Assembly: GCA_963701355.1 (NCBI GenBank)
Contig: CAVOZV010000015.1
Location: 138,680-202,679, forward strand
Direction of reading: 5' to 3'
DNA: 64,000 bases
Origin: an uncultured Actinomycetota bacterium
Lineage (GTDB): Bacteria; Actinomycetota; Actinomycetes; Propionibacteriales; Propionibacteriaceae
The translations under genes were made by a program, and so were the position numbers. The notes under the pieces were generated by a model, which did no database searches, was not told the origin of the DNA, and saw only the letters and a list, made by a program, of their open reading frames with translations. Every line of letters starts with the position of its first letter. The first letter of the stretch is position 1. Of the stretch, positions 16,295-23,943 are shown piece after piece.

Positions 16295-17689
16295 ATGTCC
16301 GACCCGGCCCGCGCACAGGTGCTGCGGCTGGCTCCGGACAGCGCGTCGATGCTGGCCGCCGAACGGTTGGCGAGGTCCGGCTCCTGGCGTGAGCTCGGCG
16401 GATCCGAGCGGGGGATCTGGGGGTTGTGCCAGGGCAGCGGCGCGGCGCCGTACGAGACGGTGGTCGAGCTGGTCTCGACCACGGGGACGTGCAGCTGCCC
16501 GAGTCGCAAGCGGCCCTGCAAGCACGTGCTGGCCCTGCTGCTGCTCTGGACCGACGACGGGATCGGGGTCGCGGCCGAGCCGGAGTTCGTGACGCTCTGG
16601 TTCGCGAAGCGGGCAGCGGGCGCCGAGCGAGCCGCGAGCCGGTCCGCCGGGGAGGCTGAGCGCGGCGGAGGGTTGGCCGATCCGGAGGCGGCGGCGAAGC
16701 GAGCCGCCGAGCGTCGGCACCGGGTGGACCTCGGACTGGTCGAGTTGGATGTCTGGCTCGGGGATCAGATCCGGGCCGGACTGGCCGGCCTGCCCCGCGC
16801 GGGCTACCAGCACTTCGACTCGGTCGCCGCTCGGATGGTCGACGCGCAAGCGCCCGGGGTAGCCGGGACGCTGCGCGCGGTGCCCGGCGAGCTGGTCGGG
16901 TCGGACTGGCCGGAGCGCGCGCTGCACGCGCTGGGCGGGCTGCGGATGTTGATCAAGGCACACCAACGAGTCGACCGGTTGCCCGCCGGGTTGGCGGCGA
17001 CCGTCCGTAGCAGGGTCGGTTATCCGGTGGCCAAGGACGACGTGCTGCGAACGACCGGGGTGGCCGATCGCTGGCACGCGCTGGCGGCGGTGGACACCAT
17101 CGACTACCAGCTGGAGAGCCGGCGGGTCTGGCTGCTCGGCGAGCACACCGGACGGTGGGCGATGTGGCTGACCTTCGCGGTTCCCGGGCAGGCGTTCGAT
17201 ACCGCGGTCCAGCCGGGACAGCGGATCGACGCGGACCTGCACTTCTATCCCGGCTCGGGCCAGCACAGGGCGCTGATCGGGGTAGCCCGGAGCATCGAGC
17301 CCGGTCCGTTCCCGCCCGTGGGGTCGTCGTTGGCCGGAGTCCGCGGCCGTTTCGCCGAGCTGCTGGCCGCGGACCCGTGGGCGAGCCGGCTGCCGGCGGT
17401 GGTCCACGGGGTGCCGTTGGCGCCGGAGGATGCCGGATCGCCGTGGCGACTGGTCGACGATGCGGGGGAGAGCTGCGCCCTGGCCGATGGCGGGGTCGAT
17501 CCGTGGGTCCTGCTGGCGCACTCCTGCGGAGATCCCATCGACGTGTTCGGCGAGTGGCACGAGAGTCGGTTGCTGGCACTCTCGGTGCTGTCGGGAACGC
17601 CCGCGGCGTCCGGGTCGCCCGAGCAGTCTCGGTCGCCCGCGCCGTCTGGGGCGGACGTGCTGCCCTCGCGTGCGATGGCGCCGTCCTGA
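16295..17689 (+). CDS. SWIM zinc-finger family protein (first gene of the YehLMPQ-like module)
   Basis: CxCx(n)CxH SWIM motif in TCSCPSRKRPCKHVLALLLLW. ATG 16295 (MSDPARAQVLRL...) is in-frame within ORF 16265-17689. The stop overlaps the next ATG (TGATG at 17687-17691). Confidence 0.8.
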   Translation: MSDPARAQVLRLAPDSASMLAAERLARSGSWRELGGSERGIWGLCQGSGAAPYETVVELVSTTGTCSCPSRKRPCKHVLALLLLWTDDGIGVAAEPEFVTLWFAKRAAGAERAASRSAGEAERGGGLADPEAAAKRAAERRHRVDLGLVELDVWLGDQIRAGLAGLPRAGYQHFDSVAARMVDAQAPGVAGTLRAVPGELVGSDWPERALHALGGLRMLIKAHQRVDRLPAGLAATVRSRVGYPVAKDDVLRTTGVADRWHALAAVDTIDYQLESRRVWLLGEHTGRWAMWLTFAVPGQAFDTAVQPGQRIDADLHFYPGSGQHRALIGVARSIEPGPFPPVGSSLAGVRGRFAELLAADPWASRLPAVVHGVPLAPEDAGSPWRLVDDAGESCALADGGVDPWVLLAHSCGDPIDVFGEWHESRLLALSVLSGTPAASGSPEQSRSPAPSGADVLPSRAMAPS

Positions 17690-18597
17690 TGAGCTGGTCC
17701 GAGATCGTCACCACCGCGTTGCTCGGCACGGGGCGGCGGCCGGTGCCCGAGGACCTACCGGCGTGGGCGGGGTCGGTCGAGCGCGCGCCGGACGCGCACG
17801 GGTCGGCGGAGCGTGGGTCGCCGGAGTCCCGGGTGCTGGACCTGGCAGCCGCGCACCGGGTCGCCGCGCAGGCGGGCCGGCCGCCCGAGCCGGGCTCGCG
17901 CGGTCCGGGCGCCACGGCCGTACCGGCGCAGCGCCTGCCCTTCGCCCCGGTCGAGGCGGACCGGCTGCTCGCGGCGTACCTGACGGCGGGCGACTCCGCC
18001 GCGACGACGCGCTGGCTGGGTGTCTGCGCGCGCCACCGCCGCGGCGCCCGCCCCGAGCACTGGGCGCGGCTGGCCGGACTGGCCTCCCGCTCACCGACGT
18101 ACGACCGGGGTGCGCTGGCCAGCGTGCTCGGCGATCGCGGCCGGTGGTTCGTCCGGCAGAACCCGGACTGGGCGAAGCTGGCGACGCTCCTCGACGCCAG
18201 CGACCGGGCCGTTGCCGACCCGACTCGCGAACCGGGGCCGTCGCCTGATCCCGATCAGGTCCGGAAGGATCCCGAACTGCTACTCGCCGTTCCCGATCCG
18301 TGGCCGTCGTCGTTGTTGGTCGCCGCGCTGACCGGTCTGGCGGAGGGTCGACTGGGCGGCAACCAGCGGCCGTATGCTCGGGCGGTCGGCGGCCGGCTGA
18401 CGGTGGATCAGTACGGCGAGCTGGGCCGGATCGCCACCGGCTTTCTCGAGCTACCGCAGTTGACGCCGGCGCAGCGCCGCGCCGTCCGAAGCCTGTTCGT
18501 CGAGATCGAGAAGGCCGGTTCGGACCGGATCGAGATCGAGCGGGCCTTCGACCCCGCGCTGCCGCGTGTCTTCCGGATCACCATCCCGCATGTCTGA
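17689..18597 (+). CDS. DUF5691-like protein
   Basis: MSWSEIVTTALLGTGRRPVP... through ...RAFDPALPRVFRITIPHV is the in-frame tail of ORF 17155-18597. It is translationally coupled on both sides. The family name comes from remembered annotation of this operon type, not from a search. Confidence 0.6.
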   Translation: MSWSEIVTTALLGTGRRPVPEDLPAWAGSVERAPDAHGSAERGSPESRVLDLAAAHRVAAQAGRPPEPGSRGPGATAVPAQRLPFAPVEADRLLAAYLTAGDSAATTRWLGVCARHRRGARPEHWARLAGLASRSPTYDRGALASVLGDRGRWFVRQNPDWAKLATLLDASDRAVADPTREPGPSPDPDQVRKDPELLLAVPDPWPSSLLVAALTGLAEGRLGGNQRPYARAVGGRLTVDQYGELGRIATGFLELPQLTPAQRRAVRSLFVEIEKAGSDRIEIERAFDPALPRVFRITIPHV

Positions 18598-22561: not shown

Positions 22562-23943
22562 GCGGAGCGCAGCGCTGGCGGCTGCTGCTCGGCGAACCGG
22601 CTGAGGAGCCGCTGGATGCCTCGTTGACCGCCGAGCAGCAGGGGATGGACCGGGCGCTGGCGGCACTCTACGAAGACGAAGATCCGGGCACCGGGCAACC
22701 GGGCCGGCCGGAGAAGCGGTCCGGCAGCCTCGGGGCGTCCGCCCCGCGGGTGGCCCGCTGGCTGGGCGACATCCGGACGTACTTCCCGACCAGCGTCGTC
22801 CAGGTCATGCAGCGCGACGCGGTCGAACGGCTGAACCTCACCGCGATGCTGCTCGAGCCGGAGCTGCTCAGCGCGATCCAGCCCGACGTGCATCTGGTCG
22901 GCACGCTGGTCGGTCTGAACCAGGTGATGCCCGAGACGACGCGTTCGACGGCGCGGGCGGTGGTCCGGACCGTGGTCGAGCAGATCGAGCGCCGGGTCGC
23001 CGAACGCACCCGGTCGGCGGTCAGCGGCGCGCTCAACCGGGCCAGCCGGACCCGGCGGCCGCGACCGTCCGACATCGATCTCGGCGCCACGATCGGACGC
23101 AATCTCGATCACTATCTGCCGGAGTACAAGACCGTCGTGCCGCAGCGCCTGGTCGGCCACGCTCGCAGCTCGCGCGGGCTGGCGGCCGAGGTGATCGTCG
23201 CGATCGACCAGTCCGGGTCGATGGCGGAGTCGATCGTCTACGCGTCCGTGTTCGGCGCCGTCCTCGCGTCGATGCGCAGCGTGAAGACCTCGCTGGTCGC
23301 GTTCGACACCGCGGTGGTCGACCTGTCCGACAAGCTCACCGACCCGGTCGACGTGCTGTTCGGCTGCCAGCTCGGCGGCGGCACCGACATCAACCGGGCG
23401 GTCGGCTACTGCGCCGGACTGGTCAGCCGGCCGACCGAGACGATCTTCGTGCTGATCTCCGACCTGTACGAGGGTGGGGTCGCCGAGGAGCTGCTGCGCC
23501 GGGTCAACGAGCTCGTCCAGTCCGGGGTCCGGGTGATCTCGCTGCTCGCCCTGTCGGACTCCGGCGCACCGGCGTACGACCACGAGCTGGCCGCCGCCCT
23601 GGTCGAGCTCGGCGTGCCGTCCTTCGCCTGCACGCCGGACGCGTTCCCGGAGCTGCTCGCCGTGGCGATCGGCCGCGGCGACGTCGCCCAGTGGGCAGCG
23701 CAGCAGCAGCCGGCTACCGAACCCCGCGGGCCCTGGACTGACCGCTCCGAGCAGGGGTTCGCGTTCGATGACGGGCCGAAGCGGGTAGGAGAGTCACGTC
23801 GTGCTGGCGTTCCTGATCATCGGCGGGATCGGCGTCGTGGTCTGATCCGTGACGTCGGCGACGGCTCGGCGGCGGCTGATCGTCGGCGCATGGTCCGTGC
23901 GTGCCGGCCCGGCGACGGTTCGCGGCGCGCTCGGGCTGAGTGA
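22558..23943 (+). CDS. VWA (von Willebrand A) domain protein with MIDAS motif; 3' boundary uncertain
   Basis: GTG 22558 overlaps the upstream stop (GTGA). MIDAS residues: VIVAIDQSGSM, GGGTDI, FVLISDLYEG. The conserved part ends near ~23710 (GDVAQWAAQQ). Third-position GC collapses after ~23785, where another frame takes over, so the listed stop at 23943 is probably not the native one. Confidence 0.8.
   Translation: MSGAQRWRLLLGEPAEEPLDASLTAEQQGMDRALAALYEDEDPGTGQPGRPEKRSGSLGASAPRVARWLGDIRTYFPTSVVQVMQRDAVERLNLTAMLLEPELLSAIQPDVHLVGTLVGLNQVMPETTRSTARAVVRTVVEQIERRVAERTRSAVSGALNRASRTRRPRPSDIDLGATIGRNLDHYLPEYKTVVPQRLVGHARSSRGLAAEVIVAIDQSGSMAESIVYASVFGAVLASMRSVKTSLVAFDTAVVDLSDKLTDPVDVLFGCQLGGGTDINRAVGYCAGLVSRPTETIFVLISDLYEGGVAEELLRRVNELVQSGVRVISLLALSDSGAPAYDHELAAALVELGVPSFACTPDAFPELLAVAIGRGDVAQWAAQQQPATEPRGPWTDRSEQGFAFDDGPKRVGESRRAGVPDHRRDRRRGLIRDVGDGSAAADRRRMVRACRPGDGSRRARAE

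Follow-up and report, generated by a model that had tools for sequence, protein, structure and literature searches.

What does a MoxR-class AAA+ ATPase encoded together with a VWA protein act on when the remaining members of its gene cluster are a SWIM zinc-finger protein, a DUF5691 protein, and a DUF5682 protein, and is such a cluster still functional when its DUF5682 gene is broken into several reading frames? Both questions are raised by five genes at positions 16295 to 23943 of a 64,000-nucleotide (nt) stretch of DNA from an uncultured bacterium of the Propionibacteriaceae (contig CAVOZV010000015.1); "the window" refers below to this entire stretch. In established MoxR/VWA systems, a ring-shaped ATPase remodels a specific partner through a VWA adaptor that carries a metal ion-dependent adhesion site (MIDAS). 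We find that the window copy is a chromosomal, vertically inherited five-gene MoxR/VWA module of a Microlunatus-like actinobacterium and that the locus belongs, as an ordinary member, to a family already known and named but functionally uncharacterized.

Identity and spread of the five-gene module

The window has a G+C content of ~70%, and the five module genes all lie on its plus strand (Table 1). A Pfam profile scan recovered every family named in the initial annotation, which had been made from the sequence alone (SWIM, DUF5691, AAA_5, DUF5682, and VWA). The motifs listed there are also present in the translations: the SWIM finger CSCPSRKRPCKH, which follows the pattern C-S-C-x7-C-K-H; the Walker A sequence GVPGTAKS and the RRRF motif (within ALRRRF) of the ATPase; and DQSGSM, GGGTDI, and SDLYEG of the VWA protein, whose MIDAS is complete. 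Pfam thresholds were exceeded by the SWIM (28 bits versus 19.6), DUF5691 (77.7 versus 27), and VWA_CoxE (163.7 versus 26.4) matches. The DUF5682 gene occupies three consecutive open reading frame (ORF) pieces that match successive parts of PF18934 (E values of 3e-52, 1e-113, and 2e-31); all parts of the profile were matched, but over frames broken by seven insertions or deletions (indels). Because Pfam matches were obtained for all five proteins, the ATPase and the VWA protein resemble YehL and YehP of Escherichia coli over their full lengths, and YehM aligns end to end with DUF5682, the identity of the module as SWIM-DUF5691-AAA_5 ATPase-DUF5682-VWA_CoxE is very nearly certain.

The K-12 locus in question consists of yehL (AAA_5), yehM (DUF5682), yehP (VWA_CoxE), and yehQ (SWIM), and the initial annotation had taken the window genes for the same set. 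This equation stands for three components. The window ATPase is 41% identical to YehL over its full length (363 aligned residues, E value of 1e-76), identity between the VWA protein and YehP is 36% (E value of 9e-75), and the end-to-end alignment of YehM with actinobacterial DUF5682 includes the common motifs GIRHH, LIEGP, FSPEWQA, and VVCGxWHAP. The two clusters also have in common a SWIM-finger protein and the lack of a known function. The equation does not extend to the remaining proteins: in BLASTP and two profile comparisons, YehQ had no significant similarity to the window SWIM or DUF5691 protein beyond the Pfam SWIM finger, and it was rejected both as a SWIM-DUF5691 fusion and as an ortholog of the window SWIM protein. 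No DUF5691 was detected in E. coli, and its genes are arranged differently (AAA-DUF5682-VWA-SWIM in yehLMPQ versus SWIM-DUF5691-AAA-DUF5682-VWA in the window). Since the window ATPase is 61 to 69% identical to its counterparts in Hymenobacter, Rhizobium, Methylosinus, a cyanobacterium, and an acidobacterium and only 40% identical to YehL, E. coli possesses a variant that has diverged from the common five-gene form. That variant is present once, on the chromosome, in 5353/5426 (98.7%) of complete E. coli genomes.

The ATPase is unusually conserved between phyla. Among 82 orthologs, the Walker A residues G-PGT-K, an R-EE-TR box, the sensor residue N217, and R233-F234 are invariant, and every ortholog has E-E in place of D-E as the acidic pair of Walker B. 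The best solved relatives in the PDB are the AAA_5 modules of midasin (E value of 1e-16) and NorQ (1e-8); an NCBIfam scan yielded only sub-threshold matches to MadB and GvpN, and the Pfam match to bpMoxR is borderline (27.6 versus 27 bits). The protein combines an AAA_5 domain retaining its nucleotide-site residues with full-length similarity to YehL and a VWA gene in the same operon, located two genes downstream as in E. coli. Judged by its similarity to YehL, it belongs to the YehL subfamily of MoxR ATPases.

To follow the module across genomes, one genome per species was scanned with a DUF5682 alignment as the query, and at least 592 of the 600 listed stretches were confirmed as DUF5682 relatives. 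Gene order was compared at the 80 loci that were kept, which are mostly from Actinomycetota, with additional loci from Cyanobacteria, Gemmatimonadota, and Acidobacteriota. SWIM, ATPase, and VWA genes surround DUF5682 in the order and strand of the window at 66/80 loci; the SWIM gene is divergent at four further loci of a Streptomyces type (L062, L071, L079, and L082), and most of the rest have truncated flanks. The ORF directly upstream of the ATPase gene encodes DUF5691 in 54 of 57 cases. These frequencies bear out the initial description of a conserved multi-subunit, ATP-driven machine to the extent that they support a conserved, co-inherited multi-gene ATPase unit, as far as gene content and order can indicate. 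Clustering of the flanking ORFs within 10 kb at the 80 loci revealed no additional conserved neighbor beyond lineage-specific synteny. WGR and DUF4132 proteins, as in yehF and yehI, were rejected as extra partners after tblastn searches with YehI and YehF gave no match and the flank clustering was likewise negative.

In annotated records, Rhizobium has the same five genes in the same order, Methylosinus has the first four (no VWA gene is listed in the PLSDB table), and Hymenobacter has a fused DUF5691 protein of 1009 amino acids (aa) followed by AAA, DUF5682, and VWA genes. Together with the actinobacterial clusters, these form the window's own group, with the same gene content, order, and translational coupling; the window copy departs from the group in its short DUF5691 protein (302 aa), a 519-bp insert carrying an XRE gene, and defects of sequence quality. 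The DUF5682 family as a whole comprises 4,738 clusters at 50% identity and is essentially absent from phage records. In the flanks available for some cyanobacterial loci (L041, L061, and L064), genes for the ATPase, VWA, and SWIM proteins are missing around DUF5682, and another cyanobacterium (L055) has the full gene set; the module may be dispersed in the genomes of the former.

The SWIM and DUF5691 genes have a closer relationship than adjacency. In Nocardia, a Gemmatimonadota metagenome-assembled genome, and several other actinomycetes, they are fused in one ORF of ~970 codons, of which the 1009-aa Hymenobacter protein is the equivalent. Because such fusion is frequent, joint action of the two proteins as one unit is supported, at the level of gene architecture. 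The window SWIM protein is 78% identical to its ortholog in Microlunatus ginsengisoli JCM 16929, the closest named relative, and its gene is free of indels. The window DUF5691 protein matches only positions 1 to 152 of the 491-position profile; relatives in its clade are ~280 to 320 aa long, and elsewhere the protein reaches 490 to 600 aa or is joined to SWIM. In the long forms, the central region has a weak match to HEAT-like repeat proteins (E value of 0.012); the 302-aa form of the window does not have this region.

To designate the module an undescribed system goes too far, since Pfam or NCBI names exist for every component and the ATPase falls into the named YehL subfamily (PMC3893208). 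In the literature searched, YehL appears only as the name of that MoxR subfamily (PMC3893208), and no paper there contains DUF5682 or DUF5691. No published function for the module was found in this literature, in agreement with the earlier statement that neither a substrate nor a phenotype is established.

Table 1. Coordinates of the module genes and associated features (window positions, except in the last row)
Feature	Position	Strand	Evidence or remark
SWIM zinc-finger protein, 464 aa	16295..17689	+	PF04434, E value 1.5e-6; ATG start at 16295
DUF5691 protein, short form, 302 aa	17689..18597	+	PF18944, E value 1.7e-21, 77.7 bits
MoxR-class AAA+ ATPase, AAA_5, YehL-like	18590..19723	+	PF07728, E value 1.7e-38, 132 bits
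XRE-family helix-turn-helix (HTH) regulator within the 519-bp insert	19731..19924	-	HTH_3, E value 1.2e-8
Hydrophobic ORF, 80 codons, within the insert; coding status uncertain	19973..20215	+	ORF list; no Pfam match
Inverted repeat, 16-nt arms, 37-nt spacer, relatively A+T-rich	20120..20188		Repeat search; 88% complementary
DUF5682 (YehM family) gene, ~773 codons once corrected; seven frameshifting indels	20243..22561	+	PF18934
VWA_CoxE protein, YehP-like, complete MIDAS	22558..23943 (conserved part to ~23730)	+	PF05762, E value 5.5e-48
SWIM-DUF5691 fusion loci in other genomes	L004-L013, L021-L028, L046, L048, L063, L072, L074 (~5900-8850 each)

Gene junctions and the interrupted DUF5682 gene

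The five genes had been described as linked by overlapping stop and start codons, and the three overlaps given for them were confirmed. The SWIM stop and the DUF5691 start share the sequence TGATG at 17687-17691 (TGA at 17687-17689, ATG at 17689). The DUF5691 stop (TGA at 18595-18597) overlaps the ATPase ATG at 18590 within ATGTCTGA at 18590-18597, an alternative ATPase start being the GTG at 18566. The DUF5682 stop (TGA at 22559-22561) overlaps the GTG start of the VWA gene at 22558 (GTGA at 22558-22561). The linkage does not run through all five genes: the ATPase and DUF5682 genes are uncoupled by a 519-bp insert at 19724-20242, which contains a minus-strand gene for an XRE-family HTH protein, an inverted repeat, and a hydrophobic ORF of 80 codons. 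M. ginsengisoli does not have these 519 bp, and its ATPase stop codon abuts the DUF5682 start; the insert is therefore lineage specific. The XRE gene has a 1-nt deletion near 19817-19820 that places its two halves in different frames. A repeat search found neither a target-site duplication nor terminal repeats at the insert, which was rejected as a mobile element on these grounds.

The inverted repeat ends 55 bp upstream of the DUF5682 start and could be an operator (of the adjacent XRE regulator) or a hairpin. Unrelated insertions occupy the ATPase-DUF5682 junction at least three times among the loci compared: in the window; in Kribbella steppae, which has a TnpB/IS605 element there (8697-9992 of its locus); and in Hymenobacter, which has a gene for a 203-aa hypothetical protein (7365-7976 of its locus).

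The DUF5682 gene had been reported as badly frameshifted, and comparison with the single intact ORF of M. ginsengisoli now places seven indels in it: a -1 at 20788; +1 at 20847, 21428, 21611, and 21707; +2 at 22087; and +1 at 22430. By tblastn with intact homologs, the reading frame changes in the order 2>1>2>0>1>2>1>2. The seven indels total a multiple of three, so the start and the stop of the gene are in one frame; the uncorrected translation ends at a stop codon at 20798-20800. Once the frame is corrected, the protein matches its M. ginsengisoli ortholog at 87% identity, and the gene is under purifying selection, with a ratio of nonsynonymous to synonymous substitution rates (dN/dS) of 0.21, compared to 0.22 for the SWIM, 0.16 for the VWA, and 0.09 for the ATPase gene. 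The third-position G+C signal moves with every shifted frame; the strand calls of the first frame-plot pass were unreliable, and the plot was used only as supporting evidence for the frame changes.

What the earlier report had not recognized is that the damage extends beyond DUF5682 and includes the XRE gene and several genes outside the module. Compared with M. ginsengisoli, the pyruvate dehydrogenase E1 gene (aceE-like, 7394-10142) has a +1 insertion at 9659 that divides it into two ORFs; a housekeeping gene frameshifted in this way is a sign of sequence error in the assembly. The malic-enzyme region downstream of the module (24180-26636) contains at least 13 single-base indels by the same comparison and is present only as fragments, and a gene at 12226-13216 has 1-nt deletions at 12357 and 12733 and runs through three successive frames. 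The indels outside the module are mostly 1-nt insertions. Roughly three quarters of the indels are 1- to 2-nt insertions. Comparison with M. ginsengisoli revealed no indels in the SWIM gene, the ATPase body, the VWA body, or the interval from 7.4 to 9.6 kb. Incomplete polishing would produce such a patchy pattern and is a candidate cause. Two related loci from sister metagenome assemblies likewise split DUF5682, the malic enzyme, and lpqB.

At its 3' end, the VWA gene has a 4-nt gap at 23710. The VWA protein is 89% identical over 387 aa to the ortholog of that species (WP_344801035, 391 aa), after which the similarity stops; the ORF continues for ~70 codons beyond the end of the 388- to 391-aa orthologs, and the tail at ~23730-23943 is read-through.

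These defects could alternatively mean that the module is decaying in this genome, DUF5682 being a true pseudogene that lost contact with its promoter through the XRE insertion and has been accumulating frameshifts ever since. Such a history would account for the restriction of seven frameshifts and an early stop to DUF5682 among the five module genes, for the insertion between it and the ATPase gene, and for the lost stop codon of the VWA gene. It fits poorly with a corrected dN/dS that does not exceed that of the intact SWIM gene, with the codon signal that follows each shifted frame, and with the similar indels in aceE, the malic-enzyme region, and the gene at 12.2 to 13.2 kb, as well as with the splitting of DUF5682, the malic enzyme, and lpqB in the sister assemblies. 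The predominance of 1- to 2-nt insertions would also be better explained by read error than by a mixed mutation spectrum. We consider decay quite improbable. Because the dN/dS is not relaxed, the same kinds of indels occur elsewhere, the sister assemblies are split as well, and the codon signal follows the shifts, the frameshifts in DUF5682 are most likely assembly errors, in which case the module is probably functional in the organism. One point weighs against this conclusion: seven frameshifts fall in one gene and none in its four neighbors, for which random error is not a full explanation. For annotators of this assembly, the apparently broken gene is most likely a problem of data quality.

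DUF5682 as a candidate partner of the ATPase and VWA proteins

No solved relative of DUF5682 was found by sequence. An AlphaFold2 model of an intact homolog (predicted local distance difference test score of 80) opens with an alpha/beta domain of ~235 residues and continues as helical repeats. When the full-length model was searched against the PDB, only TPR/HEAT-like noise from the helical C terminus was returned, with no match at E values up to 0.001. The N-terminal domain modeled alone reached a predicted template modeling (TM) score of 0.79, and its predicted core is a parallel beta-sheet flanked by helices, weakly resembling that of TIKI, erythromycin esterase (Ere), ChaN, and TraB proteins. 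Its top fold matches in the PDB include the erythromycin esterase EreC (6xcq; E value of 0.017, probability of 0.75, TM score of 0.36) and BcR135 (2rad; E value of 0.083), both of which are weak.

Residues R10, H11, H12, E35, E80, D98, R167, E168, and H194 are invariant in 76 DUF5682 sequences from six phyla, and in the model they are situated just after predicted strands or in adjacent helices. TIKI/Ere enzymes have a site composed of two His, two Glu, and an Arg on a parallel-sheet core (PMC6254334). Features that DUF5682 appears to share with them are G-x-x-H motifs after strand 1 (GIRHH) and predicted strand 6 (GAWH) of the N-terminal domain, a Glu after strand 2 (IEGP), and a conserved Arg-Glu pair. 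As a pattern of residues, the invariant set resembles the TIKI/Ere site, and we treat the resemblance as a lead rather than a finding. DUF5682 differs from TIKI/Ere proteins in having its own helical-repeat extension of ~500 aa and an acidic insert, a variable segment of the N-terminal domain rich in Asp and Glu. Such an insert would be the type of ligand that a MIDAS site binds. Fusions that might reveal a partner (Rosetta-stone fusions) were sought and rejected, as long homologs carry DUF5682 only. A TIKI-like active site in the modeled N-terminal domain is a tentative proposal, with the balance somewhat against it.

By analogy with NorQD, CbbQO, CobST-CobN, and similar MoxR/VWA systems, a mechanism can be outlined in which the ATPase would form a ring motor on which the VWA protein docks, its MIDAS metal gripping an acidic residue of the partner, and ATP hydrolysis would then remodel that partner. 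DUF5682 may be the dedicated partner that the motor switches or loads, because the module is self-contained and the DUF5682 gene always lies between motor and adaptor; the SWIM and DUF5691 proteins would provide a scaffold or targeting subunit. This motor-adaptor-DUF5682 logic, argued from known systems, is reasonably likely. As a best guess, the N-terminal domain of DUF5682 would contribute a TIKI/Ere-like hydrolytic or metal/cofactor-binding site, which the motor would switch or load. A more specific version is rather doubtful: DUF5682 would be a latent TIKI-fold hydrolase or metal/cofactor enzyme whose active site is opened, loaded, or reset by the MoxR ring via the VWA MIDAS (possibly gripping the acidic loop of DUF5682), with a HEAT-like SWIM-DUF5691 scaffold delivering the substrate.

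Several observations weigh against this interpretation. The Foldseek E values for the TIKI link are 0.01 or higher with TM scores of ~0.35, the top-ranked fold match of the N-terminal domain is an unidentified subunit of Tetrahymena complex IV, and a sequence-level link of the domain to TIKI, TraB, ChaN, or Ere was rejected, as a Pfam scan at E values up to 10 and a profile search of the PDB were both empty. The role of DUF5682 as client is read from gene order, and no experiment or paper assigning a function was found in the literature searched. In E. coli, yehL and yehM are repressed by H-NS/StpA (PMC3686432), and lineages 2 and 3 of Shigella sonnei have lost both genes by deletion (PMC12795559), a loss that fits a dispensable function. 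Weighing these points, we consider the explanation as a whole slightly more likely than not.

One alternative is that the module acts as a chaperone inserting a cofactor or metal center into an enzyme encoded elsewhere, as CoxD/CoxE and NorQ/NorD do, with DUF5682, SWIM, and DUF5691 as accessory proteins rather than clients. The VWA protein does fall into a CoxE-like family (PF05762, E value of 5.5e-48), the solved relatives of the ATPase include NorQ, and MoxR/VWA pairs are described as maturation factors (PMC3893208; PMC9976466, PMC13036017). Against this, the 80 loci showed neither a metalloenzyme gene nor any other gene in consistent linkage within 10 kb; what is invariant around the pair is the set of four partner genes, and the module is found in organisms of very different metabolisms. 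The comparison with individual pairs leads to the same contrast. NorQ/NorD, CbbQ/CbbO, CoxD/CoxE, RavA/ViaA, and eukaryotic midasin (Rea1) share with the module a MoxR-class AAA+ ring and a MIDAS-bearing VWA adaptor, but they adjoin or target either the ribosome or a client enzyme that is known, whereas the module has no such client linked to it and possesses three extra conserved proteins. We regard an insertion chaperone for an enzyme encoded elsewhere as unlikely.

The three-part logic proposed for DUF5682 has a precedent in the class I chelatases (CobN-CobS-CobT and BchH-BchI-BchD), which combine an AAA+ motor with a VWA/MIDAS subunit to drive a third subunit that is large and catalytic; CobS is of the AAA_5 type. 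They would be the closest working analogy, and one source names a member of the cluster "Mg-chelatase subunit ChlD." Unlike the chelatases, the module has no tetrapyrrole genes linked to it, DUF5682 is not similar to CobN or BchH, and the SWIM and DUF5691 proteins have no chelatase counterpart.

A role in anti-phage defense or biological conflict was also considered, with DUF5682 as a latent peptidase effector and the SWIM protein as a nucleic-acid sensor, akin to the MoxR-vWA ternary conflict systems of Kaur et al. (2020). Those systems are defined by a VMAP, iSTAND, FtsH, or beta-propeller third component and variable effectors (PMC7159879). The module resembles them in having a MoxR and vWA core with additional dedicated components, its ATPase just reaches the bpMoxR threshold, and a plasmid copy in Methylosinus adjoins toxin-antitoxin, recombinase, and insertion sequence genes; the silencing of yehL/yehM by H-NS/StpA and their loss in some Shigella lineages, next to zorO, could be read in the same way. 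On the other side, seven sequences covering all five genes gave zero matches to the 5027 models of PADLOC-DB v2 at E values up to 0.01, and Pfam scans of the five proteins and of long DUF5682 homologs detected no VMAP, iSTAND, FtsH, or beta-propeller component and no variable effectors. In place of the architectural diversity of the ternary systems, the module has a constant architecture and a highly conserved ATPase. It is essentially absent from phages, and the single-copy presence in E. coli noted above is also contrary to a defense role. A literature search on MoxR, anti-phage, and SWIM returned nothing relevant, and a defense system was rejected as the leading reading on the basis of this search and the lack of PADLOC matches.

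The location of the module provides further evidence on this point. It lies between housekeeping genes, aceE/sppA on one side and malic enzyme/mtrAB-lpqB on the other, and this synteny is conserved in relatives. The module is housekeeping-like in its behavior. Owing to this synteny, the core status of the locus in E. coli, the lack of PADLOC matches, and the lack of third components, a defense role is very unlikely, and an ATPase motor acting on DUF5682 through the VWA adaptor remains our preferred interpretation.

Flanking genes and significance of the module

The SWIM gene is directly preceded by a gene for an Orn/Lys/Arg decarboxylase (13256-16234, 992 aa). Neither M. ginsengisoli nor two related assemblies have the decarboxylase gene at this position, which reflects either a lineage-specific insertion or loss elsewhere. 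The position of the frameshifted gene at 12226-13216 is occupied in relatives by a Pterin_bind gene. Downstream of the module, a DUF58-family ORF is located on the minus strand at 27038-28117, with its upstream end overlapping an mtrA-like response regulator gene (27753-28520); DUF58 proteins are usual partners of MoxR-proper ATPases. In the ~12 kb from 49000 to 61000, long ORFs lack the high and clean G+C signature at third positions that is seen elsewhere in the window; this segment could be heavily frameshifted or foreign DNA. No Rfam family, including tRNAs, rRNAs, and riboswitches, reached its gathering score in the 64 kb.

The module is among the more widespread bacterial gene clusters that lack an assigned function. 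The window itself offers no unique experimental handle, since intact copies are available in E. coli K-12 and in culturable actinomycetes, which give better access to the family. The leads that emerge from the comparison are the SWIM and DUF5691 proteins as one unit, DUF5682 as the invariant partner of the motor and adaptor, and the His/Glu/Arg cluster of its N-terminal domain, possibly within a TIKI/Ere fold. If the more specific version of the mechanism, with DUF5682 as a latent enzyme, is true, the YehL-type module would represent a new class of ATP-gated enzyme machine, distributed from E. coli to actinomycetes.

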